Source of the DNA: a virus
Taxonomy: Duplodnaviria > Heunggongvirae > Uroviricota > Caudoviricetes
IMG/VR virus record: IMGVR_UViG_2917403263_000001
Direction: 5' to 3' (one strand)
DNA: 50,015 bases
In this document: positions 3,384 through 48,023 of the stretch, piece after piece
How the letters are laid out: every line of letters starts with the position of its first letter
Position numbering within the stretch: position 1 is the stretch's first letter
Notes under the pieces: generated by a model
What the model saw: the letters and a program-made list of their open reading frames with translations, nothing else
The model's database searches: none
Told to the model about the DNA's origin: nothing
Program-made: the position numbers and the translations under genes

Positions 3384-6300
3384 TCAACGAATACTGATAC
3401 CGGAAGCAGCTTTTTTGGTCACAATCACCGTACAGTCTGTGATGTTACCTGCGCCCCGATTGCCTTTCTGGAAAATCTTAAACTCCAGAGTGACGCTACC
3501 ACCACCACTCGGCATATCAATAACCGCGCTGTAACTACCGGGAATGGCTCCTTTAGTTTCTCTGGATGCGATTAATACGCCGTTTTTACGAACTTCAAAA
3601 CCATAACCCGTGTATCGCGTACCTCCCGGTTTATTACCGCTCCCCGGATCGTCATACGCCACACCGTTAAAAATAATGGGCGGAATAATGATTTGGCGGT
3701 CAAAGTTATGATCATCGTAAATGGTGACTGTAACCGTCCCGCCTGGTGTTTCCGTGTTACCCCACGTACCAGCCTGTTTCGGGAATGATTTGGATACAGT
3801 TTTAACGAAGTCACCTCTGACCTGGTTCGCCTCCAGCATGCCCTTAATCGTACAGTTTTCATTTACCGTGACGTTGTTGAGCGTCCCGGAGTTCGCATTC
3901 ACGTTACCGCTGATATCAGCATTTCTCGCCGTCAGCCGCCCGTCCGGTGTCAGGGAAAATGCCGGAGGATTACCACCGCTGGTAATGGTGGGAGCCGTCA
4001 GATATTTCAGAAACACTTCGTTCATGAATATCTGGTTGCCCTGCGCCACAAACATCGGCGTTTCATTCCCGTTTGCCGGGTCAATAAACGCGATACGGTT
4101 AGCGGCAACCAGGAACTGGCTCAGTTTGCCTTCCTCCGTATCCTCCATGCTGAGGCCAAGCCCCGCGACATAATGCCTGCCGTCTTCGGTCTGCTCAATT
4201 TTGACGCCCCACATGGCATTCCATTTATCGTTGGCGTCTTTCCACTCTTTCGAAAACTCCTCCAGTTTGCTGGCGTTATCCTCCGTCAGCTCGACTTTTT
4301 CCAGCAGCTCTTTACCGAGATGGGATTCGGTTATCTGGCCTTTGAAAAAATCCAGGTAACCTTCGGCATCATCGCTCGCCCGACCGACAGCCTCCACGAA
4401 TGCCGATTTGCCAACGGTGTTCACACTGCGGATATAAAAATAATAATCATGGCCCGGTTTGATATTGATACTGGCAGCTATCCAGTACAGCGCCGTGCCA
4501 AGATAGCGGGCTGCGGTTTCAACCTGCCTGATATCCGCAATCCGCTTTTCCGAGAACCAGAACTCAAACTGTACCGTCGGGTCATAAACGGCAAGATGCG
4601 GCGTTGCGGTTATCTGAAAATAGCCCGGCGTCAGCTCAATCCGCGACGGTGCTGCCGGTGCGGCAATCCGGAACGATACCGACGCCGGATCGCCCTGCTG
4701 CCCCCACGCATTTACTGCCCGGACTGTCAGCGTGTAACGCCCCAGCGCCAGTTGCCTGAAGCGGTATGTGGTTTCCGTCGTCCGGGCTGTGCTGACAAGC
4801 CGCTCACTGCCGTCATCCGCTGCCACGGTCAAGCGAAGCGTAAAGCTCACCCCCTTCACCACCTTCGGCGTGTCCCATCGCGCCAGTACCTGATATTCCC
4901 CGCTGTCTGCGGTGACTTCGGCAGTCAGGTGCTGCACCGCTGGCGGCGTGACACCATTCACCGTGCCACTCTGGTCGCCGTCAAAGTGCGCCCCGTTATC
5001 CACGATGGCCTCTTTTTCCGGCACATGCTGCACGGCGGTGATGGCATACGTGCCGTCGTCGTTCTCACGGATACTCACACAGCGGAACAGGCGCTGACGC
5101 AGCGTCGGCAGCTTCAGCCCCCACACGCTGTATTCGGCAACGCCGTCAGGAACACGGCTCACTTTTACCTTCACGCCGTCGGTGACGGACTGGACCTCCA
5201 CGCTGACCGGATTCCCCTGCCCGTCAACCAGGCTTATCAGCGTGGTGCCGGAGGATGGCAGCGTGATTTCACGGTCGAGCGTCAGCGTCCGGGTCTGGCT
5301 GTTCACCGCCAGCACACGCCCACCGATGCTGATCCCCGCATAGTCATCATCACAGATTTCAATGACATCGCCCGGTACATGGCGAAGCCCTTCTGCGCCC
5401 ACGCTGAAGTCCACGGTCTGCGTTTCCAGCAGCTCCGTTTTAATCAGCCACAGCCCGGCGCGGTGTGCCTGCCCCCGGCTGGTACAGCCAAAGGCATCCA
5501 TCTTCGTGACGTTACGACCGTAACGGAGAATGGCCTGCGTGTCCTCCACAAGCTCTGTCGCCGTCTCCCAGCCGTTATCCGGGTCAATCCAGTTCACCTC
5601 AACGGCATTATGGCGGTCCTTCAGGGCGCTGAAGCTGTAGCGGAACGGCGCGCCATCATCCGGCATCACCACATTACTGTGGTTATAGGTCCACACCTTA
5701 TCCGACGGTCGGTCCTGCACGAACGTCAGCGTCTGCCCGTTCCATACCGGCATACAGCGCATCGCCGAGCAGAAATCACTGAGAACATCCCACGCCTTAC
5801 GCTGTGTGGTCAGGTAAGCGTTACAGGTGATGCGCGGCTCCGTGCCACCAAAGCCGTCCGACACTGACTGGTCGCAATACTGGCCGATGACATACAACGC
5901 CCATTTATCCACATCCGCCGCACCAAGACGTTTCCCCATGCCGTAGCGCGGGTGGGTCAGCATATCCCACAGACACCAGGCCATATTGTCGCTGTATGCT
6001 GGCTTAAACGTTCCGTCCCAGATACCGCTGTATTGCCGCGTCTGCGGGTTATAGTTCGACGGCACCTGCAGAATGCGCCCGCGAAGATGATAATTACGGC
6101 TCACCTGCTGGCTGCCGAACTGCTCCGAATCCACCTGCACGCCGACCAGTGCCGTGTTCGGGTAGCACTGTTTCACATCGATGATTTCGGTGTATGACGA
6201 CCAGAGCGTTTTGTTCTGCAGCTGGTCTGTGGTGCTGTCCGGCGTCATCCTGCGCATCCGGATATTGAACGGGCGCGGCGGCAGGTTATCCACCACCACC

Positions 6301-6797
6301 GAGGCCAGATACTGCGAGGTGGTTTTGCCCTTAATGGTGATGTCTTTTTCCGTCACCCAGCCACCGTTACGCTGTATCTGAACCAGCAGGCGGACTTCCG
6401 ACGGATTCCGGTCCCCCTTTGAAGTGGTTTCCACCAGTGCCTGCACACCGAAGGTAAAGCGCAGACGGTCGATATTTGCAGACGTGATAGTCCGGGTGAT
6501 CGGCGTGTCGTATTTCACTTCCGTACCCAGTACCGTCTCGGAACCTGATGATTCAAATCCCTCCGGCGGTGACTGCTCCTGCTCACCTGCCCGGAACACC
6601 ACCGTGACACCGGAGATGTTGGTATTTCCCTCACTGTCCAGCACTGGCGTACTGTTCAGTAGCACGCTTTTTAATCCATCCACCGGACCTTCAATCGGCC
6701 CTTCGCTGATGGCATCGATCACACTCAGCAACTGCGTTGATTTGAGATTATCCTTCGCTTCGCGCGGGGTATGCCCCTTACTGCTGCCTTTACCCAT
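3384..6797 (-). CDS. J: Host specificity / tail tip protein J
   Basis: 1137 aa; N-terminus [24 protein letters not shown] as in lambda J; follows I. Confidence 0.9.
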
Positions 6798-6857
6798 TTC
6801 TCAGACCCCATAAACGACAAAACCGCCCGGAGGCGGTTTCACATAAAACATTTTGCA

Positions 6858-7505
6858 TCAGCGACCAATCACCACAACCTGACCACCATCCCCTTCATCT
6901 GCTGTGCTGATCTCCTGAGATACCACACGTGACCCCACGCGCATTTCACCGTACAGAACAGGCAGAACATTACCCTGGGCAACCATGTTATCCAGAGAGG
7001 AGAAATAGGTGTTCTGCTTACCGTTATCCGTTGTCTGTGTGCGGGGAGTTCTGGGTTTAGGAGCCAGCATCTGGGCCACACCGCCAAGGATCATACTGGC
7101 CCCCGCACTATACATTCCTGTAATTGCTGTCGCTCCCAGCCAACCTGCGGGGTTCCACCACGCCACCGCAATCAGCGCCGCCCCCAGCACCGCCTGAAAC
7201 ACGCCGCCACTTTTGGCACCGGTCAGACGCGGTACGATGTGGATGACGGCACCATTCGCCAGCGGCTCATTAAGACGGGCTGATAATTCCGTTTCACCTG
7301 CATCGCGCCCGGCAATGCGTACCTGATACCAGCCGTCGCTCAGTTTCTGACGAAACGCAGGGAGCTGCGTGGCCAGCGCCCGGATGGCTTCGGCTCCCGT
7401 TTTCACACGAAGGTCGATGCGGCGGCCAAATCGTTGCAAATCCCCGTAAAGGCAGATGCGTGCCATGCCCGGTGACGCCAGAGGGAGTGTGTGCGTCGCT
7501 GCCAT
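6858..7505 (-). CDS. I: Tail assembly protein I
   Basis: 215 aa starting MAATHTLPLASPGMARICLYGDL, ending GDGGQVVVIGR; lambda I-like; start may be an internal ATG because the ORF overlaps K. Confidence 0.8.
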   Translation of the reverse strand: MAATHTLPLASPGMARICLYGDLQRFGRRIDLRVKTGAEAIRALATQLPAFRQKLSDGWYQVRIAGRDAGETELSARLNEPLANGAVIHIVPRLTGAKSGGVFQAVLGAALIAVAWWNPAGWLGATAITGMYSAGASMILGGVAQMLAPKPRTPRTQTTDNGKQNTYFSSLDNMVAQGNVLPVLYGEMRVGSRVVSQEISTADEGDGGQVVVIGR

Positions 7506-18942: not shown

Positions 18943-20058
18943 TTAAATCCCTGCTTTTCTGAATGCCTGTGCATCACGCTCTCGGAGTTGCTTCAGCGTC
19001 AGCCACTCGCCTTTATCGGTGTAAAATTCATCTGGCGACATACCACCATCCCGAATCAGCTTTGCCCGGGTTTCCCCCACAATCTGTTTTTGTCTGGTGT
19101 AAGGCTGGCGCAAAAACCATTCCCTGTAGGTTGTATCTCCGGCCACCACGCCATCCATGCTGGCCCGCTCAGCCGGGGAAATATCACGAACATCAATACC
19201 CAGTTCCTTCGCTGATTTCAGAATGAACGTTTCCGTTGAGCGACAGCAGAAATGAATTTTCCCCGGCCCCTGCAAATAAGGCACGCTGTGACCTACAGGT
19301 TTATTATCCAGCGTATATTTGAGGCGATCCCTGATTCGACATTGTGGCGTAGTACGATTATCAAGCGTTGATAACCATTGCTTACCCTTAATCAAATCAT
19401 TATTCGCGCTGGCAAAACTCTCACGGGCAGTAGCAGCAAGATGTCCAACCGCTGTTTTTGCAATGCTGGCCGCATTAGCCCGACTCATCTGCAATGCACC
19501 GTCCTGAAATCCCTTACTGACATGTCCCCGAATTTTTCTTGCGATCTGCTCATTGGTATCCCCCAACAAAAAACCCTGACGCACCGTATTTGTTATGCGT
19601 CTGAGCCGATCCGCCTCAAGATCTGAGGCCCACTCACTGAGCAGTCGTCCCTGGAATGGTCGCGCCATTGCAGCGGCATAAAGTGCATCAGGTGAGATAC
19701 CAACCAGAGGGTGAACATCAGCAACAAAATCAGGTAGCAGAGAATCAAACAGACTTAACTGATAACCAGCCTCATAAACTGCCAGCTCGTTCAGCTCTCC
19801 GGAGAGACTGGTAAACATACTGTTAATCGCAGCGCGGTTAACCTCTCTGACACTCGCCAGAAGTGACTCTAGGCGCGTAACGGTAAAACTACCTGGATCG
19901 AGGCTGTCCAGAGCCACCAGCAGGCGAGCTGTAAGCTCCGCATCACTGTCATTCAGTGTTTTCACCATTCTGGCAGCCACACCAGTGCTATAGCGGGATA
20001 CCCAGACTGCATGAGCAATTGATTCATCACGCAGCCGTTCATTCACGGTTTGCATCAT
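18943..20058 (-). CDS. Head morphogenesis protein (SPP1 gp7 / Mu F-like)
   Basis: 371-aa ORF immediately downstream of the portal gene; family assignment recalled. Confidence 0.65.
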   Translation of the reverse strand: MMQTVNERLRDESIAHAVWVSRYSTGVAARMVKTLNDSDAELTARLLVALDSLDPGSFTVTRLESLLASVREVNRAAINSMFTSLSGELNELAVYEAGYQLSLFDSLLPDFVADVHPLVGISPDALYAAAMARPFQGRLLSEWASDLEADRLRRITNTVRQGFLLGDTNEQIARKIRGHVSKGFQDGALQMSRANAASIAKTAVGHLAATARESFASANNDLIKGKQWLSTLDNRTTPQCRIRDRLKYTLDNKPVGHSVPYLQGPGKIHFCCRSTETFILKSAKELGIDVRDISPAERASMDGVVAGDTTYREWFLRQPYTRQKQIVGETRAKLIRDGGMSPDEFYTDKGEWLTLKQLRERDAQAFRKAGI

Positions 20059-21446
20059 TGATATCCATCAGCATCACACTCTGATTTTTTAATTCATCGA
20101 TCACTTCCTCTGGACGGGAATCCTGATCAATAAATTTCAACGCCTGCAACACCCGAACCGCATCAATCTGACGTATATCACCGCCCTGACGCAATGACTG
20201 AACAGCCAGCGCGGAGGATGAGTCAAACACCTGGGCAGATACATCCAGTTCAGTGCGCACATCCACATTGCCGCCGCAACTCTCTCCGATCCATTCCGCC
20301 ATTATCTGGAGAATATTATCGAGGGCATCTTCGAGGGAGTTCGCCATTGTATAAAGCGGCGAGTTTTCCTGCATCCGCTCTTCATTAGTCTGATCAACAG
20401 ATTTGGTGGATGTATTTTCAGCCCGCAGAAGTTTAGCGCCGGCATGACGCATCTGATTTTCCAGCTTCTCCAGTTGAGGTTTCGCCAGATTCTATCGCTG
20501 CCCCACTATGTTCAACATATTCGAGGCCATTTTTTGTTCTGTCCTCAAAAATCGTAGCGGTGGATGCACCAACCGTCAGTTCTTCATTTCTGTCCAGCCC
20601 GTAGGCCACCAGCAATGGGACGCGGGCAACATGAAGAATATTGTCCTGCTCGCTCTGGCTTTGCCAGTGCTTGATATTCAACAAGCCAAGATTAAGCAAT
20701 GGCGGTGTACCACGCATAAACCCGATGCGCTTCGTGTACAACGTAACCAGGGGAATATCATCACGGCTGGTATCCCATGACTCGTGAAGCGCCCAGACAG
20801 ATTCGCCATTAGTACCTTCGCTGCGTCGATAAATTTCAACGCGACGGGGCATAATATGGCGGATCTGCTCCACCTTCTTCTGCCCGAAATCATCACCATC
20901 AACAATGATGACCTCTTTTATACGCAAATCAGTAAGAACAACTTTCCCTTTTTCAACTTTCGATTTCCATCCAATAACCTGGCGTGGATTCAGCATCGTA
21001 ACGTATGGGCGACCACCAGCCGCATTTTCATCGGCTTTTGTCCGGATCTCCTTCATATCCGTTCGTGGATAGTCCACCAGCGCATGTGCCACACCATACT
21101 GAAATGCGAGGCTGAAAAATTGCTGCGCCCACACATCCAGTCGGCTCCCCTCCATGTCGATATTTTCTGCATATTCCCTGATTTTTTCCGGCGTTTCCTC
21201 ACTCAATACTGTCGGCTCTGCAAATATGCGTCCAATATTTTGCTTAATGCTTTCTTCATACACAGGAAGTAGCGTAGCCACAGACAGGCGTTTTTTATAA
21301 GCGTCTTCATCTTCGTTAGGCCATTTGGGGAGATAAATTCCCCCCTGCCTGCGCATTTCAAGCGTACCGCCCATCAGTGCGTCATTAATATCCCACGCCT
21401 CCAGCATATCGTTATAGTCGAGGTTGGGTGTTGATATATCAGCCAT
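20039..21446 (-). CDS. Portal protein, reading frame broken as assembled
   Basis: 337-aa ORF (20433-21446) and 137-aa ORF (20039-20452) in different frames overlap by 20 nt; together ~470 aa between TerL and the head morphogenesis gene; break lies in 20433-20500 (T3 at 20480-20482 or T4 at 20457-20460). Confidence 0.6.
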
Positions 21447-21448
21447 AA

Positions 21449-22746
21449 TTAAATCCGAAGTGATGTGACTCTTCCGGTCGGTTTGACAATAGGGAATTGC
21501 TTAACGATGAAATAACCTCCGGCATCATTCGGGTGATCGTTGCCAGATTTTTTATCAGGCTCCCCTTTATCATCCCAGACCTGTTGCTCCAGAGATTCGG
21601 CATATACCGGACAACGCTTCACATTAACTTTATAGCGACGCTCGCCATTGGCATTGCAGAACATTGCATTCATTGAGTTAACGCGATCTTTTACTGGCGG
21701 GTTCGAGTTGTTCACCACAACGTTAAAACCAGCCTGCTTAAGCTGAGCTATATCCGTCGTACTTGCGTTACTTGATTTTCTGGAATCTCCGGAAGCATCT
21801 GGATAAATATAAATCTCCCTCACTTTCCGATAATCATTCCCGTCATACAGCCAGAAGCGTTCTTTAATGATGCGAATCATATCCGGCGTATCGTAGGCAT
21901 TGATGATTTCAGTTACCGCACATGGAAGACCCAAACGCAGCACATGGATGATCCCCGCCATCTTTCCAACGTTAAAATCCATCCCAATATAAATCGGCTC
22001 CCCTGGCTGCTCCACTTCTTCGCAATTATTCAGTTTCCGGTCAAACTGATGGTAAACCGTACCACTTGTCAGGTTAGTAAACTGTCCTCGAAGATAGGCT
22101 TTAATCAGCTCTGGAGGGTATGATTCAAGAAGCGAAGGAATGTAATCTGCTGGCAGGTTCTTTTCATTATCGAAAGTAGATGCCTGCACCAAACCATACA
22201 GTGAGGCCAGCTCTGTTTTTTCACGCACGGCTTTAACAAACTGCTCGTAGACAAATTTGAATCCTTCCGGCGTGGTTGTAACGTCAATACCGTTGCGAAG
22301 TCCATCAACCTTATAACGCATACGCGCAATTATCTTGCGCCACGCTGTTCTGGCTTTTTCCTTCGGCAAAATGTCCAGTTCATCCACCAGTGCATTACCA
22401 ATTTTGAAACCGACGATCGTTTGCGGCTTCTCCATCGATCTGCAGATAGTGGTTCCCCGATACTGACGTCCGTAATAAAAATGAACCTCTTTATTTCCCT
22501 CATTAATTTTTACGTTCAATCCCCAGTCAGCAGCAACTTCTTCCACTGTAGGGTAAAAAATATCGCGAATTTGGGGATACGTTGGCGCAAAATATCCCTG
22601 ATTTATACCTGGATGCTCCCAAATCCCTTTGCATATGCCGCCACACCCAACCCATGTTTTACCCGAGCCAAAACCAGCAATATAGGCTTTAAATTTATGG
22701 GGCATTGAAAGAAATCGCGCCTGAGGCACATTAAGCGTCGGAGAGA
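21449..22746 (-). CDS. Terminase large subunit
   Basis: Start set at MKMISPTLNV (SD aaggag); Walker-A-like AGFGSGKTW; ~432 aa. Confidence 0.85.
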
Positions 22747-23825
22747 TCATCTTCATCACTCCTTGCTCTTGCATCAACCACATTAATATTGATCGCCACA
22801 GGCTGGGGATGTTCATTATCTTCCACCGTTTCGATCTCTTTACGCAGCTTCTGGTTTTCCATTCTGCGCCGTTCAATTTCCAGTTCCTGTAGCCGCTTAT
22901 CTGCACATAAAGCCCCGCCAGCAGAAAGCAAACGCAACAATTCACGCCGGGCGGCAGCTTTATCCTCCAGCAGGATCTCAACACCGAATTTTCCTAGCTT
23001 TGCCCCTGCATATAATTGCCGTGCATCCCCATCAAGCAGAGTGGTATCAGCCATATAAAGCTGCCCCGTTCCCTCACCGCAGCACTTCGGGCAGTCCGGA
23101 TTGGGTATGGCGTTATCAACAAAGCCAAGCCCTCCATATTCCGGTTCGGGTTTGCCATCTCTGGAAGCCTGCGCCGCTGCCTTATCAAATTCTGCTATAT
23201 CGCGCCACTGGTAGAGATGATTCTCGCCCCAGCAATAACGGCAGTTAACACGGCGAAATTGGGCAAGCTGATTGGGGTCGGCCTGGACAATGGACATCAA
23301 CTGACTCACCAGTAAATCCAGGTCTGCGGTATAGCGTTTCTGGTACTGATTGCGGAAGTAGCTGATAGCACGAAAAACCTTAGGATTTCTTAGGAGCTGG
23401 CTGGCGGTTACGTAGGCCGCATTCCCCTCTGACTCGTATCCTGCCAGCCGATATGCCTCAACGAGTTTTTTCCCCTGGGCAACCAGCATTGCGAATTTCG
23501 CCTGCTGGTCTGAAATACCGAATTCATCGGGACAGAACGAAATTTCTTCCGCATCGCCCTCATTCAGGTACGCATCGGATACTGGCTTTTTTTCCTGAGA
23601 TTTTCCGTTCCGCTTTTGTGCAGTCTGCGCAGATTTTTTCTGCGCACTTTTCTGCGCAGTTTTGCGCATTTCTGTCTGCGCATTTTTCGGAGGTTTTTTG
23701 ATGTAACGACGGGCTGTTGCGTAATTCAGTCCCCTTGCTTCACACCATGCCACCGGAGATATACCGGAGCGGGTGTATTCAGCAATATACTCCTGCTGCA
23801 ACGCCCCCCAGTCCGGTCTGCTCAT
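22731..23825 (-). CDS. Putative terminase small subunit (N-terminal HTH, Lys/Gln-rich linker, Cys-rich C-terminal region)
   Basis: 364 aa, N-terminus MSRPDWGALQQEYIAEYTRSGISPVAWCEARGLNYATARRYIKK; CRYCWGEN..CPKCCGEG; overlaps TerL start. Confidence 0.55.
   Translation of the reverse strand: MSRPDWGALQQEYIAEYTRSGISPVAWCEARGLNYATARRYIKKPPKNAQTEMRKTAQKSAQKKSAQTAQKRNGKSQEKKPVSDAYLNEGDAEEISFCPDEFGISDQQAKFAMLVAQGKKLVEAYRLAGYESEGNAAYVTASQLLRNPKVFRAISYFRNQYQKRYTADLDLLVSQLMSIVQADPNQLAQFRRVNCRYCWGENHLYQWRDIAEFDKAAAQASRDGKPEPEYGGLGFVDNAIPNPDCPKCCGEGTGQLYMADTTLLDGDARQLYAGAKLGKFGVEILLEDKAAARRELLRLLSAGGALCADKRLQELEIERRRMENQKLRKEIETVEDNEHPQPVAININVVDARARSDEDDLSDA
23621..23694. repeat. Phased TGCGCA plus T-tract repeats inside the TerS gene (candidate pac/packaging recognition site)
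   Basis: Five copies of (c)tgcgca followed by T-tracts at 11-15 bp spacing; encodes the AQKSAQKKSAQTAQK linker. Confidence 0.4.
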
Positions 23826-23828
23826 CAG

Positions 23829-24038
23829 TTAGTCCTGATTCTTATCCACCCTGAGTAGTTCGCGCAGGGCAAAGGCATCCCCTTTTCTGGCGAGCTTAAA
23901 CAATGCCGCCCGTAGCTCGGCCTCACCTTTCGCTCTGCCCTTACGGATGGACGCGTAAAAATTTGTCATTGCTTCCCGATTTTCTTTCAACCGGTTCAGA
24001 TCAACATCCAGAACGTCAGCGATTTGTTGTGCAGTCAT
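23829..24038 (-). CDS. Small HTH-containing protein upstream of TerS
   Basis: Probable start MTAQQIADVLDVDLNRLKEN; ~69 aa; alternative start at 24080. Confidence 0.4.
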   Translation of the reverse strand: MTAQQIADVLDVDLNRLKENREAMTNFYASIRKGRAKGEAELRAALFKLARKGDAFALRELLRVDKNQD

Positions 24039-24966
24039 CCGGCACGCTGCCAGAGACTCGACTTTCGAATACGGAATCATTTGTCACCCCCATTGATATG
24101 CAGGGTGTCTTCTTCCTGTATTTTTCGTGAAGGATTTTTACTGCAGCGTTGTTCCAGGTGACCTGATGGTGAATGCGTTTATGGCTGGCGCCCATCAGTG
24201 AGATTTTTACGCACGACGGCGCATACATGACGGAGTAAAAACTTTTAACGTAGGTTCCGGAATCCAGATACAGCTCGGTCATTCCGCCGCTGTTTTTCTG
24301 CGTCTGTTTCTGCCCTAACTGGACAGCACCGATCGTCATAAACAATTCACCACGGCGACCAAGATTCGTGTACGTATTCACATCCTCGTTAATGCGCCCC
24401 ATGAATGAGAACGGTCGTTCAACCGAACAGATAAAGCTGTTCATTGCCTTGCGTTTCACCCACGAAGCATGGCCGCCATTGTCACCAAGAAAATCCCCGC
24501 CCTGTGACATAGCGATGGAAAGCGCGGGTATTGATTCGTAATACGCCAGCATTTCAGAAAGGATCGCATCCAGTTTCCTTATCGGGAAATAGGCCTGGTC
24601 ATAGTTGCGATCCACACGAAACTGGAACTCGTGATAATCATCATCGAGCTGAATGAAGTATTTACACCCGACCAGTTTTGCCAGGTCGAAACAGGCATTA
24701 CGGGCGTAAAAAATTGAGCGGCGATCACCGAAATTATCGGCTTCGTCAAAACGACTGGCGATATCGGCTTTGGAAAACACCAGCACCTGTTCACCAAATT
24801 CAGCTATGTACTGATGCCGTGTCTTATCTTCATCATCAACAACGATAAAAATTTTCCCGGTATAGCCAGCACGACGCAACGTCCGGTAAGTCAGAACTTT
24901 GTCCGGTCGCCCGTGAGTCAGAATAAAGGCGCAAAAATCATCACGCATATTCCTTCTCCCCGCCAT
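24016..24966 (-). CDS. GT-A-like (DxD/DDD motif) protein of unknown function
   Basis: 316 aa; AFILTHGRPD, KIFIVVDDED, YFIQLDDDY motifs suggest a nucleotide-sugar transferase-like fold; translationally coupled to the upstream ParB-like gene. Confidence 0.4.
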   Translation of the reverse strand: MAGRRNMRDDFCAFILTHGRPDKVLTYRTLRRAGYTGKIFIVVDDEDKTRHQYIAEFGEQVLVFSKADIASRFDEADNFGDRRSIFYARNACFDLAKLVGCKYFIQLDDDYHEFQFRVDRNYDQAYFPIRKLDAILSEMLAYYESIPALSIAMSQGGDFLGDNGGHASWVKRKAMNSFICSVERPFSFMGRINEDVNTYTNLGRRGELFMTIGAVQLGQKQTQKNSGGMTELYLDSGTYVKSFYSVMYAPSCVKISLMGASHKRIHHQVTWNNAAVKILHEKYRKKTPCISMGVTNDSVFESRVSGSVPDDCTTNR

Positions 24967-25729
24967 GCATGATCTCCACCATGTGCTGCGTCATCCGGAC
25001 AAATCCATTTTCAATAGCCTGCTGGTAATCAATGATCACCAGCGCCGACTCCTCAAAAAGGCGCTGAATTTCAGCAGGAGCGTGAGCGTAATAGTCCGCA
25101 ATTCTGCTGAAATTAAACACCGTGTGACGTTCTGCCGCACACAGGAGGAATTTTTCGATATCAGGCTCAAGGGACGCCGAACGTATCCGGCTGATCAGCT
25201 CCTGAGTTTTCGTATCGTCGTACAGTTCACTGATATCCGGTTTACCGCCCGACGGCTCATAAACAGGCGTATCAATTTTCGTCGTATAAGGCTCCTCCTC
25301 ATTTCCTGTACCGGGCAAAACATCCGTCAACAGTTCATCAATTTCTGTCGGGCTGAATCCTGTCAGGGAAATATCAAAATCAGCATTGATTAGCTCCGAC
25401 AGCTCCATCCGTAACAGATCTTCATCCCAGCCAGCATTCATCGGCAGGCGATTATCTGCCAGGCGGTACGCCTTTTTCTGATCATCCGTCAGACCAGACA
25501 GAACGATGACCGGAACGGAATCCATTTTGAGCACTTCAGCCGCCATAACGCGACCGTGACCAGCAATAATTTCGCCCTTTTCATCAATCAGCACCGGATT
25601 AGTCCAGCCGAATTGCTTAATGCTTTCTACCAGTTGTGCCACCTGCTCAGGGCTGTGTGTCCTGGCATTGTGTGCATACGGAGACAGTTCTTGTAACGGG
25701 CGATAGACGATCTTCAATTTCTCGCTCAT
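24941..25729 (-). CDS. ParB/Srx-like nuclease domain protein
   Basis: 262 aa; N-terminal ParB-N motif PVLIDEKGEIIAGHGRVMAAEVL; unknown C-terminal domain. Confidence 0.7.
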   Translation of the reverse strand: MSEKLKIVYRPLQELSPYAHNARTHSPEQVAQLVESIKQFGWTNPVLIDEKGEIIAGHGRVMAAEVLKMDSVPVIVLSGLTDDQKKAYRLADNRLPMNAGWDEDLLRMELSELINADFDISLTGFSPTEIDELLTDVLPGTGNEEEPYTTKIDTPVYEPSGGKPDISELYDDTKTQELISRIRSASLEPDIEKFLLCAAERHTVFNFSRIADYYAHAPAEIQRLFEESALVIIDYQQAIENGFVRMTQHMVEIMHGGEKEYA

Positions 25730-26800: not shown

Positions 26801-27346
26801 TTACAAACCAACACGTTCTTTCATCCAGCCGTAGACAAACGACTCGTTGGCCTCCCGTTTCTCTGCCAGCTCCAGATAGCGGTCACCCTGCGTACAGTTC
26901 AGTGCGGTCAGCATTACCCGTTCGCCTTCCCTGCCACGATTTTTCAGATATGCCCGTAACGCATTAATAGTTCGTGGGCCGATACGTCCGTCTGCATCCA
27001 TATCCGGATACAGTTTCCCGCGCAGGTTGAAAACGTTCAGCCAGCGTTGAAGCATTCTGGACGCCACAGTTGGTCCCATGTTCACGCCCGTGTCGCACAG
27101 CTCTGCAGCAATATCCGGCGACAGGTTCGCAATCTGGTCAAAACGTGGGCCGTACCAGTAATCCGCCTCGAGTATTTCCAGCGCCTGCCCGCGCGTCAGG
27201 TCACGCATATCGCCCTGATATCCGTGCACCCTGGCGACTTTTTCCGTAATGCCCCATTTGGTCGGACCACCTTTATCATCCGGATGGTTGACGTAACCGC
27301 CCTCTTTTCCCAGAACCTCGTCAAAAATTTCATCTTTCGACTTCAT
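26801..27346 (-). CDS. Endolysin, GH108-type lysozyme with peptidoglycan-binding domain
   Basis: Start MKSKDEIFDEVLGKEGGYVNHPDDKGGPTKWGI (GH108-like motif); ~181 aa; adjacent to holin-like genes. Confidence 0.75.
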   Translation of the reverse strand: MKSKDEIFDEVLGKEGGYVNHPDDKGGPTKWGITEKVARVHGYQGDMRDLTRGQALEILEADYWYGPRFDQIANLSPDIAAELCDTGVNMGPTVASRMLQRWLNVFNLRGKLYPDMDADGRIGPRTINALRAYLKNRGREGERVMLTALNCTQGDRYLELAEKREANESFVYGWMKERVGL

Positions 27347-27347
27347 T

Positions 27348-27641
27348 TCAGTACCTTCGTAATGCAAGGATTTTTGAAACATTCCCACGTGCACGTATCA
27401 CCAGCACGCAGAACAGCAGATTAAAAAACACCACCAGCCAGTTCGCCGCTAACAGACGACCACACAGATAGCTGAGTGGCGCAAGGGCATAAAGCAGCAT
27501 CAGCAGCCAAGCCAGCCATGACATCAGCGGTTTATGTCTGGAGTCATGACGACGATAAAAAAAAAGCGTCAGCACGATAACCGTGCATAACGCTACATTC
27601 AGCAATCCAGAAAAGTTATTAGGCATTGCCGCCTCCTCCAC
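27348..27641 (-). CDS. Lysis-associated membrane protein (holin/antiholin-like)
   Basis: 97 aa with ~3 predicted TM segments between holin candidate and endolysin. Confidence 0.4.
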   Translation of the reverse strand: MEEAAMPNNFSGLLNVALCTVIVLTLFFYRRHDSRHKPLMSWLAWLLMLLYALAPLSYLCGRLLAANWLVVFFNLLFCVLVIRARGNVSKILALRRY

Positions 27642-28008
27642 CCCGCAGGCGGGAGAACAGGCCGGACACCAGTGATGCGATATCCTGCTGGTGGATGAAC
27701 GACAGAATCTTCACCGACACCACTGACACCAGCACTGCACACAATGCGTCGACAGGCGCTCCGTCAAACCCTGTATGCTTTACCAGCCAGGATGCCAGAA
27801 CCTCTGCACCCAGCACGCCGATAATGAACGACACCAGAAAATGCGCCGCCACACGCCACGCTGAAAGCGCCTGCGGTATCGTTGCCACAAATAACGCCCC
27901 GGCGAACGCACCAAACACAATCCCGAAATCCGTTCCGGTAAACAGCCCGAATACCGTCGCCCCGCCGAGCGCCGCAGCCGTGCCGGAACCGGATAAGGGT
28001 TCAGACAT
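27619..28008 (-). CDS. Putative holin
   Basis: Start MSEPLSGSG (SD aggag); Gly-rich multi-TM protein, first gene of the lysis block. Confidence 0.5.
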   Translation of the reverse strand: MSEPLSGSGTAAALGGATVFGLFTGTDFGIVFGAFAGALFVATIPQALSAWRVAAHFLVSFIIGVLGAEVLASWLVKHTGFDGAPVDALCAVLVSVVSVKILSFIHQQDIASLVSGLFSRLRGGGGGNA

Positions 28009-28199
28009 ACTTTTTTCTCCTGTAAATAAAAAAGGCCACCAGCGGCCCGTAAAAAACAACATCCCATCGTAGGAATCCGCAAATGCCTTTTGTGTGACAT
28101 AGTCTGATATGAAAAGCGAAGAATTAATGTACGGAAATAAGGATTACCAGAAATTCAGATTAATTTTCCTGTTTAAACGAGAAAAATTAATTTATATAC

Positions 28200-29749: not shown

Positions 29750-29824
<75 letters not shown>

Positions 29825-29827
29825 ATA

Positions 29828-29903
<76 letters not shown>

Positions 29904-30133: not shown

Positions 30134-30161
30134 AATAAAAAAACCCGCCAGTGGCGGGTTT
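30134..30161. terminator. Bidirectional intrinsic terminator; candidate tR' ~100 nt downstream of Q
   Basis: A7-cccgcc-agt-ggcggg-T5; U-runs on both strands. Confidence 0.6.
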
Positions 30162-30232
30162 TTAAGTTCACGTTTCTGGTTAACCTCGCGATACAGCTTG
30201 CGAAGCGTAACTGAATTGAAGCAGTTTATTGC
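30162..30232 (-). promoter_or_regulatory. Candidate late promoter (PR'-like) / Q-utilisation region
   Basis: Between Q stop and the terminator; minus strand has TTGCAA-17 bp-TTCAAT-like elements; location by analogy with lambda PR'-qut-tR'. Confidence 0.35.
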
Positions 30233-30778
30233 TCACTTTGCAATAGTTTTTTTTTGTGCCGTGAACATTGGTTTATAAAGCATAAATTCAGCAATCATCA
30301 GCCATTGATCGATACGACGTCGACAGGTAATTAATGTCCAGTCAGGATGATTTTCATTTAACTGCTCTGCCATTTTCAGTTTGCTCATTCCCCGCCCTTC
30401 ATATCGTTGTCGGAGGATGCTAATTAATCCCGGATACTCGACCAGCACTTCGCTAATTACCCGATCAATACATAACGCCTCGGCATCAGTACAATGAGAC
30501 AACCAGCTTTTCTGCTTACCGTCGAGCATTTCCCGCAAAAATGCCTCCAGTTCCGTCTTATCAATTCCCGCTTTTTTCATCCTGCGCAGAGCTTCATTGA
30601 TGGCTGTTTTCGTCAATTTTTTGGATGCCAGCAACTGGTTAAACATATTCCCCGTCTTACCGCCGCCAATATACGACCAGCGCCCCCACATGCGCAGTTT
30701 TCCCTGAATCCAGACACTTTCCAGCGTGGTGAGACGAAGGTGTTCCCCGCTTTTTCCTGTATTTGTTGGGTAAATCAT
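30233..30778 (-). CDS. Q: Late antiterminator Q
   Basis: Start MIYPTNTGKSGEHL (SD aggaagg); ~181 aa; position directly upstream of a short terminated leader, tRNAs and lysis genes; Q-family assignment recalled. Confidence 0.65.
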   Translation of the reverse strand: MIYPTNTGKSGEHLRLTTLESVWIQGKLRMWGRWSYIGGGKTGNMFNQLLASKKLTKTAINEALRRMKKAGIDKTELEAFLREMLDGKQKSWLSHCTDAEALCIDRVISEVLVEYPGLISILRQRYEGRGMSKLKMAEQLNENHPDWTLITCRRRIDQWLMIAEFMLYKPMFTAQKKTIAK

Positions 30779-31068
30779 AAATAACCTTCCTTTCTCCAGA
30801 TTTCTTGTGTGCGAAAAACACCTTCTGCATGCATCAGGCGTAATTCTTCTTTGGTGTAATCGCTGGTTTTTACTCTCCCGTCGATTAAATCGTGGCATGA
30901 GCTACAGGCAATTGCAGCCTGCATATCGTGTGGCTTTGTCGCTGTTCCACACGTCCCCGCCAGTCTGTAATGCGCCAGCACGGAAGTTTCGGGATTGTGA
31001 TTGCAGTACCCAGGAATTCTGACCTGACACATCTGGCCCCGCGCCGCTTTACGTAAATCTGCCATCAC
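30775..31068 (-). CDS. ybcO: YbcO-like (DUF1364) Cys-rich putative nuclease
   Basis: 97 aa MMADLRKAARGQMCQVRIPGYCNHNPETSVLAHYRL..CSSCHD; coupled to Q (4-nt overlap). Confidence 0.65.
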   Translation of the reverse strand: MMADLRKAARGQMCQVRIPGYCNHNPETSVLAHYRLAGTCGTATKPHDMQAAIACSSCHDLIDGRVKTSDYTKEELRLMHAEGVFRTQEIWRKEGYL

Positions 31069-32263: not shown

Positions 32264-33385
32264 CTAGTGAATTTTGCCTCTAAGAGTTCGGTAAGATTGT
32301 AGTGAAACAACATCACCACTTCCTGGCAGTTCATGAACCGCAGGAAGATCATCTCCAACTAACTCATAAAAAATGTCCACTTCTATATCCATTTCATCAG
32401 CTATACGCTGTGGGTCGTATCCTAACTCTTCAAATAAAAACGATAAAGCCCGACGGAATAACTCAGGACGCTCATGAGGGATTAGATAATCTTCTTTTTC
32501 ATCAATAGCTTCCCCTTTCCGTTTCAACCCCATAAATGCAGTTCTGTACTGCTCATCAGTCAAAAGTCCTAATTGATGAGCCCTGTAAACAATGGCAGCC
32601 TTACTTACTTTCCATGTCAACTTAAATTGGCTTAGTCCCTGCCAATTTATCCTCCCCCCCACAGGTCTTGGAAAATATTTCGCCATCGACGTTCTGGGAA
32701 GCAACAGAGCAGAGGCAAAACGGTTTGCCTGGGATTCAGTTAATCTATCACCAGTAGAAATTCCTTCATGAAGAATCAAATGGGCAACCTCATGAGCAAT
32801 ATCAAAGCGTTGCCTACAAGGTGAATTTTTAGCTGTATTTCGAACAATAAAAGGCCTTCGTAGAGGAACAGACAGTGCATCTACTTCATCCGAAACGGAG
32901 TCAAATGAAGTAACAAACGCCCCAAGTTTCTCGGCCAGGCGAGTCATATTTTCAATTGGGCCAAAGCCTAAGCCCCACTCAATACGACATTTTTCTGCCG
33001 CTCGCTCGATATCTTCTTGTGTATGGACACGAAATTCAGGAAATCGAACAGGTGACAAATTAAGATTATCTTCAAATACATCAATAAAACGACGATAAAA
33101 CTCAGCCTTAGCGAGTGTTGATAGCTTCGTTGACATCCTTGTCGAGGCGCGTTTACGAAAATGTACAATCTCTTCATTAACAGGAGAATGTTCCTGCCCT
33201 TCGAAAAAGGCGGGCTTCACGCGCAAAACCTCGGCTAATTTATTTATAAGCTCTGGGGATGGAGTAGCTGAACCAGACTCCAGTCGCTGTACATACTGGC
33301 GTGTTTTTTCAACCTTCTCAGCAACCTGCTCCAGAGATAGCTCGTGATACAGACGAGCAAGTCTTAAATTAGTACCGTTAAACAC
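32264..33385 (-). CDS. XRE-family HTH fused to ImmA/IrrE-type zinc metallopeptidase (COG2856-like)
   Basis: N-terminal HTH LSLEQVAEKVEKTRQYVQRLESG; HEXXH motif HEVAHLILHE; 373 aa. Confidence 0.8.
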   Translation of the reverse strand: MFNGTNLRLARLYHELSLEQVAEKVEKTRQYVQRLESGSATPSPELINKLAEVLRVKPAFFEGQEHSPVNEEIVHFRKRASTRMSTKLSTLAKAEFYRRFIDVFEDNLNLSPVRFPEFRVHTQEDIERAAEKCRIEWGLGFGPIENMTRLAEKLGAFVTSFDSVSDEVDALSVPLRRPFIVRNTAKNSPCRQRFDIAHEVAHLILHEGISTGDRLTESQANRFASALLLPRTSMAKYFPRPVGGRINWQGLSQFKLTWKVSKAAIVYRAHQLGLLTDEQYRTAFMGLKRKGEAIDEKEDYLIPHERPELFRRALSFLFEELGYDPQRIADEMDIEVDIFYELVGDDLPAVHELPGSGDVVSLQSYRTLRGKIH

Positions 33386-33395
33386 ATTTCACCCA

Positions 33396-34037
33396 CTATT
33401 TGCTATTTTGTTTCTTTTCCTTCTCAGTCTTAGACGCACTGATAGGTTCTAGTTCGATAGGTACCGGTGCTGGAGGTACATCATCGACAGAGTTCAGCAT
33501 AACAACACGGTCCGCACCATATGTCCAAGTTGACACGATCTCACCAAACACGTTATAGCCATTAAAAATGACTTTACCACCCTCGCCTTCAAATTCAGGC
33601 TTTTCAACCACAAAGCGATGCATAGTTGGAGTGGTCTCCTCTGACTCAAAGAGTCGATCAGCATCGTTTCTTTTGAAAAAACCGCGTTTCTTGGGATTAT
33701 CTGCGTCATCAGTAAAGAAACGAATAGGGACATTCCCAATTGAAAACGTAAGATCCATGCCAGGATTAAGTAGTCTTAACCAGTCATATGTCTTTCGTAC
33801 GCACATTTGTAGCAACGCCTGCCGCTGACGCCCAAATGTACAACCACCACGAGTGTAATTATCATCATAGGGCGATGACAATAACTCATGAGTAATATCC
33901 TGTATCCTGAGCAACTCCTCAGCTATTATGGTTAAACGATCCTCTGTTAACTCAGGAAAGAACTCCCAAGGGAATGGATGGTTCTGCATAGACACATCTC
34001 CGTCTAATCCGTGCAAAAAACGACTTTTGTCAACCAA
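33396..34037 (-). CDS. Hypothetical protein, first gene of the two-gene cassette
   Basis: 213-aa ORF (possible internal start MQNHPFPW); 10-nt gap to the HTH-peptidase gene; AT-rich; no family recognised. Confidence 0.5.
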   Translation of the reverse strand: MVDKSRFLHGLDGDVSMQNHPFPWEFFPELTEDRLTIIAEELLRIQDITHELLSSPYDDNYTRGGCTFGRQRQALLQMCVRKTYDWLRLLNPGMDLTFSIGNVPIRFFTDDADNPKKRGFFKRNDADRLFESEETTPTMHRFVVEKPEFEGEGGKVIFNGYNVFGEIVSTWTYGADRVVMLNSVDDVPPAPVPIELEPISASKTEKEKKQNSK

Positions 34038-46800: not shown

Positions 46801-46959
46801 CAGGAACTCCTGGAACTTGGTCGACAGGAATATCGCCGGACGCTACGCCAGATAAACGAAGCCCTGGAGACAAACAACTGGCCAGCACCGATTACCGAAA
46901 GTTATACCGACGAATTAAACGACTTTGATCTTCGTCGTCTTGAAGCACTGAGCATCTGA
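43816..46959 (+). CDS. recE: RecE-like exonuclease VIII with divergent, insertion-bearing C-terminal PD-(D/E)XK domain
   Basis: 1047 aa; N-terminal ~600 aa match Rac RecE (recalled: [29 protein letters not shown]); C-terminal [13 protein letters not shown] nuclease motifs; internal repeat HNASLPALM / YNASLPPLL. Confidence 0.8.
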
Positions 46960-46970
46960 GGAAGGACACA

Positions 46971-48023
46971 ATGAACGAATTAACTCAACAAGAAAATATT
47001 AACTCTAATGTTGCGGTTTTCAGCCCTCAGTCCCTGGCTGCAATTCAGACATTTTCCCAGGTAATGGCTTCCGGCATGGCTACTGTACCGGAACACCTCC
47101 GGGGAAATCCATCAGACTGCATGGCCATCACCATGCAGGCGATGCAGTGGCAAATGAACCCTTACGCAGTAGCTCAGAAAACTTTCGTTGTGAATGGTGT
47201 GCTCGGATATGAAGCGCAACTGGTTAATGCCGTAATCAGTACTCGTGGGCCGCTAACCGGGCGTATTGAATATGACTGGTTCGGGCCGTGGGAAAAAATT
47301 ATCGGGAAATTTGAAATCAGGAAGAGCGACAAAGGGAAAGAATATCGTGTACCTGGCTGGAAGCTGGCCGATGAAAACGGGATCGGTGTTCGTGTCCAGG
47401 CAACACTACGCGGCGAAAGTAAACCACGCGTACTGGAATTACTTCTGGCGCAGGCCAGAACACGTAACTCAACGCTATGGGCCGACGATCCTCGCCAGCA
47501 GCTTGCCTATCTGGCGCTGAAACGCTGGGCGCGCCTTTATTGCCCCGAAGTGATTCTTGGAGTGTACACCAGGGACGAACTGGACGAGCCACAGGAAAAA
47601 ATCATTAATCCGGTTCAGGAACATAAAAACACTTCCGCTTGCCGCGCGGAACGTGAAACAACAATTATTGAGCAGGATGCCGGGGAAAACTGGATCGATG
47701 CTTTCCGTGAACGTATTGAGCAGGCACAAAGCACCGGGGAAACAACAGCACTTCGCCAGGAAGTGGAAGATCATAAAAATACACTTGGCGCTCTCTATAC
47801 GGAACTTAAAGGAAAAGTGGTTCAGCGTCATCACCGTCTCAATGCTATTGCCCGTATCGAGAAGATGATAAATGACCTACCTTCTTCAGGTGATCCAGAA
47901 GCAGAACAAAAATTTACTGCTCTGGAAAATACGCTGAATGCTGCCCGGCCACATCTGGGTGAATTATATGAGGCGTATAAAACGACACTGACAGATATGA
48001 AACCAGAATATATCGGCTCCTGA
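46971..48023 (+). CDS. Putative single-strand annealing protein, divergent RecT-family, in the recT position
   Basis: 350 aa directly downstream of recE-like gene; LAYLALKRWARLYCPEV resembles the RecT-family C-terminal motif; not canonical E. coli RecT. Confidence 0.5.
   Translation: MNELTQQENINSNVAVFSPQSLAAIQTFSQVMASGMATVPEHLRGNPSDCMAITMQAMQWQMNPYAVAQKTFVVNGVLGYEAQLVNAVISTRGPLTGRIEYDWFGPWEKIIGKFEIRKSDKGKEYRVPGWKLADENGIGVRVQATLRGESKPRVLELLLAQARTRNSTLWADDPRQQLAYLALKRWARLYCPEVILGVYTRDELDEPQEKIINPVQEHKNTSACRAERETTIIEQDAGENWIDAFRERIEQAQSTGETTALRQEVEDHKNTLGALYTELKGKVVQRHHRLNAIARIEKMINDLPSSGDPEAEQKFTALENTLNAARPHLGELYEAYKTTLTDMKPEYIGS

Follow-up and report, generated by a model that had tools for sequence, protein, structure and literature searches.

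The stretch of DNA analyzed here, a window of 50,015 nucleotides from a virus of the Caudoviricetes (IMG/VR record IMGVR_UViG_2917403263_000001), is a Rac-like lambdoid prophage, and in it two overlapping genes on the minus strand specify a ParB/Srx-fold adaptor protein of 262 amino acids (aa; YnaK-like; 24941-25729) and a GT-A glycosyltransferase (GT) of the TAGT family of 310 aa (24016-24948, or 316 aa if read from the ATG at 24966). These genes form a conserved pair, and the reading that we favor, at about even odds, is that of an adaptor-dependent DNA glycosyltransferase acting before packaging. A preliminary description of the window, prepared without database searches, had already reported both open reading frames (ORFs) on the minus strand (24941-25729, 262 aa; 24016-24966, 316 aa) and had read them as a possible module for DNA modification or counter-defence. 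That interpretation is partly supported, in that it identified the general kind of system correctly although its substance is unproven: the type of module and its position in a late operon fit a role in DNA modification or anti-restriction, whereas the prophage encodes no enzyme that would furnish a 5-hydroxymethyl-pyrimidine acceptor.

The association between the two genes was followed in three samples of public viral contigs, fetched by way of the GT, by way of the C-terminal domain of the adaptor (C-domain) alone, and by way of more distant TAGT proteins. An ORF with the C-domain lay immediately upstream in all 85 of the GT-fetched loci; the new loci fetched with the C-domain, for which the seed was a divergent member, had a same-strand TAGT gene within 2.5 kb or less in 79 of 79 cases, mostly overlapping; and in the sample of distant TAGT proteins (76 loci), an adaptor was present in 67 of the 70 loci with room for one upstream. 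In total, the pair is kept together in 231 of 234 informative loci, mostly with overlapping stop and start codons, and the combination that the preliminary description had picked out is, on these counts, a conserved functional pair. Nor is it loose cargo, as had been supposed, but a syntenic two-gene system in many unrelated phages. A rare exception is the GC-rich phage contig L233, in which a full-length TAGT gene of this clade (5947-6870) is preceded by an 81-aa helix-turn-helix (HTH)-like ORF and no ORF with the adaptor C-domain occurs within 6 kb on either side.

The hosts and genome types in which the pair occurs are varied. It is found in HK97-like phages, where identity is about 60-65% and the pair is accompanied by unrelated terminases and an HNH gene, in the Lactobacillus gasseri phage phi jlb1, in the L. 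delbrueckii phages c5/LL-Ku, in the Nocardia phage NTR1, in Vibrio phages of about 191-195 kb, and in the archaeal virus HHTV-2, whose gp21 contains the ParB module as well as the C-domain. Among complete Escherichia coli genomes, 866 of 5,426 (strain W included) match the 2.1-kb region over 80% or more of its length, with nucleotide identities of 80-99%, and phages with the module have been deposited as isolates. For the GT, a search of 90%-identity clusters gave at least 8,000 candidate homologues, and there are 1,493 50%-identity representatives at E <= 1e-3. Because both proteins have thousands of homologues and are strongly conserved, their ORFs are real genes and not the products of chance.

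The longest ORF for the GT (316 aa, 24016-24966) overlaps the ParB-like gene by 26 nt. Its likely start is Met7, the ATG at 24946-24948, which yields the 310-aa product and an 8-nt stop/start overlap, ATGCGTGA, within which lies the stop codon of the ParB-like gene (TGA, 24941-24943). A Shine-Dalgarno sequence, GGAGAAGG, is situated at 24952-24959, with the ATG of the GT 3 nt beyond, so that the junction on the coding strand reads ...GGAGAAGGAATATGCGTGATG..., and the PGAP annotation of the corresponding genes in E. coli HBUT-L has the identical GT start, 310-aa length and 8-nt overlap. Because the Shine-Dalgarno sequence and overlap found here are accompanied by the PGAP start and by the recurrence in unrelated phages of an adaptor/GT overlap of a few nucleotides, the translational coupling claimed in the preliminary description is well supported, with the start corrected to the ATG at 24948 and the overlap to 8 nt.

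That the downstream gene specifies a nucleotide-sugar transferase of the GT-A type had also been suggested, and matches in Pfam, phrog, Foldseek and BFVD assign it specifically to the DNA-glycosylating TAGT family. The protein matches Pfam TAGT (PF20691) with E = 4e-35 and 122.1 bits (cutoff 27.5) over model positions 4-205 of 205, and phrog_842 ('beta-glucosyl-HMC-alpha-glucosyltransferase') with E = 1.7e-102; its RefSeq/PGAP label is 'GREB1-related protein'. Across 29 GT sequences, with identity down to 59%, R14, D38/D41, DDDY102-105 and NEDV187-190 are invariant, as are the strings QGGD, GGMT, GTYVKSFY and RxHH. The DxD/DDD motifs previously noted in the 316-aa ORF are indeed present (VVDDED and DDDY), and the DDD at residues 102-104 of the 310-aa protein (24637-24645, minus strand) is the motif for the metal and nucleoside-diphosphate sugar. 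Together, the catalytic-type residues R14, DDD102-104 and E188-D189 match the R...DDD...ED pattern, which is the motif of phage DNA GT-A enzymes and of the base-J GT (bioRxiv 10.1101/2023.12.21.572611).

An AlphaFold2 (AF2) model of the GT is confident for residues 1-180, with low local confidence (pLDDT) over residues of about 186-310. When it was compared with the PDB by Foldseek, the matches (E~1e-4) were exclusively GT-A glycosyltransferases and related nucleotidyltransferases, including glycogenin, ColGalT1, SunS/ThuS and POMGnT1; among the viral structures of BFVD, the top matches are TAGT-domain proteins (E = 6.6e-22). A sequence search of the PDB with the TAGT protein gave nothing below E = 0.7, a PADLOC search gave no match, and tblastn of the GT against 50,697 phage records gave 36 matches only, none of them to a T-even phage. 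Beyond the region covered by the Pfam model, the GT has a C-terminal extension (aa ~205-290) that is conserved and strongly basic (isoelectric point, pI, 9.7).

Elsewhere in the TAGT clade, the domain is fused to an S-adenosylmethionine-dependent methyltransferase (N- or C-terminally), to a second TAGT, to a sulfotransferase, or to a P-loop-like N-terminal domain (proteins P0264, P0287, P0297, P0266, P0248, P0256, P0267, P0273 and P0285), which suggests that more elaborate, tailored glycans are made in other viruses. A search of viral contigs for the context of a kinase-like TAGT fusion returned unfused relatives only. In some phages, additional genes stand between the adaptor and the GT, either a His_Phos_1 and cytidylyltransferase-like fusion or a CofD-like and MobA-like NTP-transferase pair (loci L112, 867-1817, and L113, 3107-5477; also L114, L117, L118, L143, L149, L157 and L160), and these probably make unusual nucleotide-activated donors. 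The family, the fold, the fusions and the inserted donor genes are all consistent with an active glycan-building enzyme.

The upstream protein matches Pfam ParB_N (PF02195) at 28.5 bits against a cutoff of 26.3, and phrog_620 with E = 8e-90; PGAP names it 'ynaK: ParB/Srx family N-terminal domain-containing protein', and its top Foldseek matches are Noc, ParB, PadC, KorB, Srx and SerK. Its N-terminal ParB/Srx module, of a type that binds nucleoside triphosphates (NTPs), occupies, with a short helical segment, aa 1-135 (25325-25729, minus strand) and gives PDB profile matches to the CTPase domain of Noc and ParB (E = 2e-5). The residues of this module that are conserved in the alignment are N21, H25, S36, GWTNP 41-45, GHGR 57-60 and YRxADN 88-93; the string GHGRVMAA, to which the preliminary description had drawn attention, falls at residues 57-64. 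R60, the Arg of box II, is retained, as is N93, the Asn of box III. Residues 10-144 correspond to the N-terminus of the Type II methyltransferase model of PADLOC (MTase_II; E = 4e-38), and the protein also matches phrog_498 'DNA methyltransferase' (E = 3.5e-51).

The N-module is followed by a predicted disordered segment (aa 136-167; pLDDT <50 in the AF2 model, in which values are low in the C-domain as well) that contains the linker motif Y148-T-x-K-I-x-x-P-x-Y-x-P-S160 (25250-25288, minus strand), in which the residues Y, K, P, Y, P and P do not vary, even between divergent phages and the archaeal virus. The remainder is a TAGT-associated, helical C-domain of about 85 residues (aa ~165-255; 24965-25237, minus strand) with the conserved strings FLLxAAERHTVFNF, KIADYYAHA, EESALVIIDY and AIENGF. 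The preliminary description had left this domain without an assignment, and it does lack relatives in Pfam and in the PDB: there is no Pfam match, and the PDB sequence search produced nothing beyond faint matches to repeat proteins, judged to be noise, the lowest whole-sequence E being 0.035 and no domain aligning significantly.

Two more familiar identities for the adaptor were considered and rejected. The label 'nuclease' used in the preliminary description finds no support, the domain being of the ParB/Srx N-terminal NTP-binding type, and a 'ParB nuclease' was rejected for lack of any nuclease motif or match to a nuclease family. A 'partition ParB' was set aside because the window has no ParA, the protein has no HTH, and its scores against the NCBIfam partition ParB models are sub-threshold (TIGR00180, 37 bits against a cutoff of 58). 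In the Rac prophage of E. coli K-12, the gene called 'ynaK' retains no more than the initial 89 codons of the ParB-like gene (93% identical; L165, 7378-7981): relative to the window, a deletion there joins 25476 to 13881, and the C-domain, GT, terminase, portal and head genes are gone. Because K-12 ynaK is truncated, the phenotypes reported for it concern a remnant.

Across phages, the N-terminus of the adaptor is mostly the ParB module seen in the window, and in some the module belongs to another ParB/Srx subfamily (GGNMR). A ParB module is missing altogether from at least 16 distinct adaptors, which are only ~130 aa long, and 13 of these 16 start with (M)KQxN[LM]F / QxxLF, as against 0.7% of background ORFs with the pattern Q..[LM]F. 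The QxxLF peptide resembles QL[SD]LF, the motif by which bacterial proteins bind the beta clamp. Such terminal peptides are confined to the ParB-less relatives, since the window's own adaptor has the ParB module instead and no clamp-binding-like peptide. The genes for the ParB-less adaptors belong to replication modules, where they follow DnaB or a DnaC-like gene; one locus has the order PolA-TAGT-adaptor-DnaN-like-RecU-like. In the Vibrio phage pv27 (~191 kb; L167, 4459-5888), a 139-aa ParB-less adaptor that does not have QxxLF lies directly upstream of the TAGT gene, the two being situated between exonuclease and helicase genes. Judged from these sequences, the conserved partner of the TAGT clade is the C-domain, even where the ParB module is absent.

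The reading of the pair as directed at DNA follows from the facts that TAGT relatives act on DNA, that the N-module is common to DNA methyltransferases, and that the pair is positioned by packaging or replication genes. Because the pair is placed among late genes, after the lysis genes and before the terminase, it belongs to a Q-dependent late operon. From these features we infer that the ParB-like protein and the GT interact physically, that the enzyme is thereby tethered to DNA, that DNA is its substrate, and that the benefit is anti-restriction. Under such a model, the TAGT-family catalytic subunit would use a host nucleotide-sugar as donor, and the N-module of the adaptor would be a swappable DNA-tracking device, either an NTP-gated ParB/Srx module or, in other phages, a peptide for the replisome clamp. 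The C-domain, perhaps with the invariant linker motif, would dock on or activate the GT; translational coupling from the Q-dependent late operon would supply stoichiometric amounts of adaptor and GT; replicated progeny DNA would be glycosylated just ahead of packaging; and the glycosylated DNA, once injected, would resist host nucleases. Late, coupled expression just before the terminase fits modification of progeny DNA at that stage. The preliminary description had the module acting on packaged DNA, which is unlikely: its expected target is DNA that has been replicated and is not yet packaged or is in the course of being packaged, and some phages have the module in the replication region.

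The most serious difficulty for an enzyme of this kind is the source of its acceptor, and several observations weigh against the DNA-directed reading. All characterized TAGT-family DNA enzymes need a pre-made hydroxyl, and Pfam scans of all sizeable ORFs in the window detected no TET/JBP/5mYOX, no thymidylate-synthase-like hydroxymethylase and no C5 or N6/N4 methyltransferase. A survey of neighbors in 34-38 dereplicated loci, considering the 25 most frequent families in each direction, likewise contained no Tet_JBP, thymidylate-synthase or C5-methylase family, and the complete genome of phi jlb1 (38 kb, 54 genes) has the order ParB-TAGT-TerS-TerL (TerS and TerL being the small and large terminase subunits) with no annotated base-modifying enzyme. 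The adaptor itself also departs from what would be expected of a DNA clamp. Its box II is GHGR rather than GERR, and since the catalytic Glu and one Arg are absent, NTP hydrolysis is doubtful; all of its segments are acidic (pI 4.6, net charge about -22), which would be unusual in a DNA clamp; and it has no recognizable DNA-binding domain, with no Pfam match to an HTH or ParB-C. Instead of DNA, the acidic adaptor may bind the GT through the basic lobe of that enzyme. No ParB-TAGT fusion was present among the top 150 50%-identity representatives (nor was any C-domain-TAGT fusion), and our literature search found no experimental data on the DNA of pair-carrying phages. A more specific proposal, that the pair glycosylates DNA with no pre-installed hydroxymethyl group and places the sugar directly on a canonical base or at another native position in DNA, is one that we advance tentatively and regard as possible but rather doubtful.

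The same survey describes the surroundings of the pair more generally. Within 3.5 kb downstream, the most frequent gene is a TerL of at least four Pfam families (Terminase_3 in 14, Terminase_6N in 12, GpA in two, and TerL_ATPase-type in others), and on the upstream side the neighbors are genes for replication, recombination or lysis. The loci have no third gene that consistently accompanies the pair; there were one dCMP deaminase and an occasional N6/N4 methylase.

The acceptor problem disappears altogether if the GT is a protein glycosyltransferase, and this is the main rival reading, although we consider it unlikely. Its target could be Tyr, Thr or Ser in the linker of the adaptor, in the manner of glycogenin, or a replication or packaging protein, with the C-domain presenting the substrate. 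An invariant Tyr-rich motif does occur in a disordered linker adjoining a GT-specific domain; modifiers of proteins and peptides (glycogenin, ColGalT1, SunS/ThuS and POMGnT1) are among the structural neighbors of the enzyme; and the TAGT domain of animal GREB1 O-GlcNAcylates estrogen receptor alpha (PMC7968844), which counts against a DNA substrate. Those structural matches, however, are to generic GT-A folds at E~1e-4 and do not discriminate among substrates, whereas the nearest characterized relatives modify DNA (PMC13216743; bioRxiv 10.1101/2023.12.21.572611), and both types of N-module (one shared with DNA methyltransferases, the other a clamp-like peptide) as well as the placement by replication and packaging genes point to DNA.

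The lack of an acceptor-making enzyme could also mean that the pair is a relic of a larger hypermodification cluster of the TET/5mYOX-ParB-GT type, with no current function in this prophage. Clusters of 5mYOX genes often contain GTs, ParBs and terminases (PMC13229309), Rac-type prophages decay, as in the 89-codon ParB remnant of K-12 and the frameshifted GT of E. coli ET358, and the portal gene of the window is itself split, apparently by a frameshift. Yet neither gene of the pair is damaged in the window, thousands of clusters show strong conservation of both, and a pair that is unaccompanied by a dioxygenase is the rule in the three viral-contig samples, in which the C-domain was never seen with one, and in the complete genomes of viable phages. 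A relic is for these reasons improbable.

Within E. coli, the state of the module differs among strains. In ET358 (L245, 6616-8328), a frameshift affects the GT near codon 287, the annotation lists the ParB gene as partial, and trkG adjoins as in the Rac prophage of K-12; the module is thus decaying in some strains. When the window was compared with the prophage of HBUT-L (L001), the ParB, GT and small downstream genes were 97-100% identical, and TerS was 85% identical over aa 1-335 (window 22731-23825 versus L001 11013-12026); for TerL and the portal, the proteins of the window had no match in the fetched HBUT-L locus, and tblastn of those of HBUT-L had none in the window. This is a mosaic joint, and the module recombines together with most of terS.

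The location of the pair bears on two further explanations. Nearly all genes leftwards of the DUF1133/Q-like antiterminator gene (30233-30898) are on the minus strand, and the late region includes a strong terminator-like hairpin (30139-30163). Genes for tRNA-Thr(TGT) and tRNA-Gly(TCC) (29750-29903, minus strand) are situated between the Q-like gene and terminator and the lysis genes, a placement that matches that in E. coli relatives. Pfam matches then identify two holins (27348-28062) and a GH108 endolysin (26801-27394) upstream of the pair and, through Terminase_2, Terminase_6N and Terminase_6C, TerS (22731-23825, minus strand) and TerL (about 21449-22750, minus strand; 433 aa in ET358) downstream of it. 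The preliminary description was correct in placing the pair between the lysis genes and the terminase, but not in placing it directly upstream of the latter: a gene for a small HTH-like protein of 69-83 aa (23829-24080, minus strand), which is overlapped by the last ~22 codons of the GT, intervenes before TerS. This small gene matches the 'terminase small subunit' region of phrog_309 (E = 2.5e-22), is 100% identical in E. coli, and has a counterpart of ~85 aa at the equivalent place in many enterobacterial loci; it probably belongs to the packaging module and not to the pair.

One of these explanations is that the pair serves the prophage in defence or exclusion, glycosylating incoming foreign DNA or a host factor against superinfecting phages. 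Such a role has been raised for prophage GTs (bioRxiv 10.1101/2023.12.21.572611), and ParB/DUF262-type domains occur in defence systems (PMC12373910). We regard it as very improbable: the genes are inside the Q-dependent late operon rather than in a moron slot expressed during lysogeny, the GT has no PADLOC match and the ParB-like protein matches PADLOC only as the N-terminus of a methyltransferase, and the pair is found also in the ~191-195-kb Vibrio phages and in the L. delbrueckii phages c5/LL-Ku.

Least probable of all, in our estimation, is that the adjacency is incidental and the functions independent, with the ParB-like protein acting in partition, pac-site recognition or as a packaging nuclease and the GT acting on lipopolysaccharide or virion proteins. 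ParB-like genes are commonly near phage terminase genes, and phage GTs that modify O-antigen or capsids do exist (bioRxiv 10.1101/2023.12.21.572611; PMC12373910). Against this are the 231 of 234 loci in which the two genes remain together, the persistence of the C-domain beside the GT even when the ParB module is missing, and the lack in the window of ParA, of an HTH or parS-binding domain, and of recognizable partners of the Gtr type. With respect to the last, no GtrA/GtrB-like genes were detected by Pfam in the window, and the GT is in a late operon, unlike in seroconverting Gtr-type systems, in which a membrane GT is usually encoded beside the attachment site and expressed in lysogens.

The other genes of the window conform to its lambdoid type. 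The integrase (49251-50015) is at the right end, and the early region includes RecE/RecT (43816-48023), a cI-like repressor, replication genes of the YdaS/T/U type, and genes for DUF1627, DUF977, Ead/Ea22, an HTH-M78 peptidase, DUF1367 and YbcO. In the nin-like region (32264-34037, minus strand), the HTH and M78 (ImmA/IrrE-type) peptidase of 373 aa is directly downstream of a 213-aa protein for which there was no Pfam or NCBIfam match, and the two may be an accessory or defence-type pair. The late genes that follow the terminase are those for the portal, a Mu-F-like protein, a P22-type coat protein and the tail. The portal gene (DUF4055 type; 20039-21446, minus strand) consists of two overlapping ORFs of 337 and 137 aa in different frames, whereas in ET358 it is one coding sequence of 468 aa in a single frame; the split is due either to a frameshift, in which case the prophage would be defective, or to a sequencing error. 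In the 5' part of terS (23615-23682, plus-strand coordinates), short repeats and hairpins based on TGCGCA(G) form a cluster that encodes an AQK/AQT-rich stretch of TerS and could be a pac-type site.

Solitary TAGT-type GTs are a recognized gap, and the module provides a defined, testable two-gene unit with an obligate adaptor, whose frequency in E. coli makes experiments easy. Should DNA prove to be the target, the module would bring to light an acceptor chemistry that is new or else an acceptor that the host supplies unnoticed, and the recent principle of ParB as activator of DNA-modifying enzymes, so far applied to dioxygenases and methyltransferases, would extend to glycosyltransferases as well. 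Should the target be protein, the module would represent a new kind of phage protein glycosylation tied to replication and packaging. Either outcome is relevant to restriction evasion, to host range in phage therapy, and to the 'modified base' signals of long reads in prophage DNA. Direct glycosylation, if it proves true, would be a post-replicative modification of DNA with a new chemistry, for which an adaptor either of the ParB type or bound to the clamp serves as the means of delivery along DNA. It would occur in an archaeal virus and in many temperate phages, among them the prophages of about one-sixth of complete E. coli genomes.

Iyer et al., in 2013, reportedly defined the TAGT family, and that work is cited for ParB in hypermodification clusters. 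Our search of the literature, with that work outside the comparison, found no description of the pairing of ParB with TAGT, of the C-domain or of the QxxLF variants. As far as searchable literature goes, three features are new: the C-domain as an obligate partner, the exchange of ParB for a clamp peptide at the N-terminus, and the fact that an enzyme to make the precursor is consistently absent.

Among characterized systems, TAGT-family enzymes glycosylate 5-hydroxymethylcytosine (5hmC), 5-hydroxymethyluracil (5hmU) or glucosyl-hmC in DNA (PMC13216743; bioRxiv 10.1101/2023.12.21.572611); the acceptors 5hmC and 5hmU come from TET-like dioxygenases, and in T2/T6 a second glucose is placed onto glucosyl-hmC (PMC13216743). 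A 2026 NAR paper classed 288 of 753 GT-encoding phages as having a 'solitary' TAGT homologue of undefined function, with no alpha- or beta-GT (PMC13216743), and about 65% of mined GT contigs were without a neighboring base-modification enzyme (bioRxiv 10.1101/2023.12.21.572611); in both papers, ParB-like and terminase genes are given only as frequent neighbors. It is plausible that the clade in the window belongs to this solitary group. Our GT resembles the family (the TET/5mYOX-associated GTs, the T2/T6 enzyme and the base-J GT) in its full-model Pfam match, GT-A fold, R...DDD...ED residues and phage origin, but it belongs to a distinct clade, has a basic C-terminal extension and an obligate adaptor gene, and resides in a genome with no TET, hydroxymethylase, alpha-GT or beta-GT.

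The closest parallel for the adaptor comes from O'Toole et al. (PNAS 2026), who found that one subclass of phage thymine dioxygenases (5mYOX176/ParB176) requires a ParB-like activator (PMC13229309). That activator consists of a nucleotide-binding domain (NBD), a short helical segment, a disordered linker of ~50 aa and a C-terminal domain (CTD), has no DNA-binding domain, is needed only on double-stranded DNA, and functions even when its NTP site is mutated; and 5mYOX clusters often hold GTs (31%), ParBs (27%) and terminases (19%) (PMC13229309). The adaptor in the window has the same layout, with an NBD and helices to ~135, disorder over 136-167, a CTD modeled as helical over 166-255, and no HTH, and the spacing of its putative NTP-site residues (N, R, S ... 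R) appears similar when the published residue numbers are set against our alignment. In both cases, a phage DNA-modifying enzyme is, or here would be, paired with a ParB-like protein, with terminase and GT genes nearby. They differ in that the partner here is a glycosyltransferase and no dioxygenase is encoded, and in that the C-domain here is tied to TAGT, with activation of the GT predicted where that of the dioxygenase was demonstrated.

Three other systems share single elements with the pair. The alpha-GT of T4 is bound to a sliding clamp, gp45 (Sommer 2004, as cited and confirmed in PMC13216743), and the ParB-less adaptors, with their QxxLF peptides and residence in replication modules, recall this concept of clamp tethering; but the T4 enzyme is a GT-B that binds the clamp directly and acts on hmC, whereas the tether here would be a separate adaptor, which in the window has a ParB module. 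The CTP-dependent clamps ParB, Noc and KorB have in common with the adaptor the N-terminal fold, the box II R60 and the box III N93, and differ from it in that the adaptor has GHGR in place of GERR, is strongly acidic, and is without ParA, an HTH or a basic DNA-binding surface. Finally, Kaljevic et al. (PNAS 2025) described prophage-enriched fusions of ParB to N6/N4 DNA methyltransferases, with glycosyltransferases, terminase and YnaK unmentioned (PMC12704722). The N-terminal ~140 aa of the adaptor are the same module that in those proteins is joined to a DNA-modifying enzyme, with the difference that the effector here is a separate polypeptide, a glycosyltransferase, which would be recruited through a dedicated C-domain.

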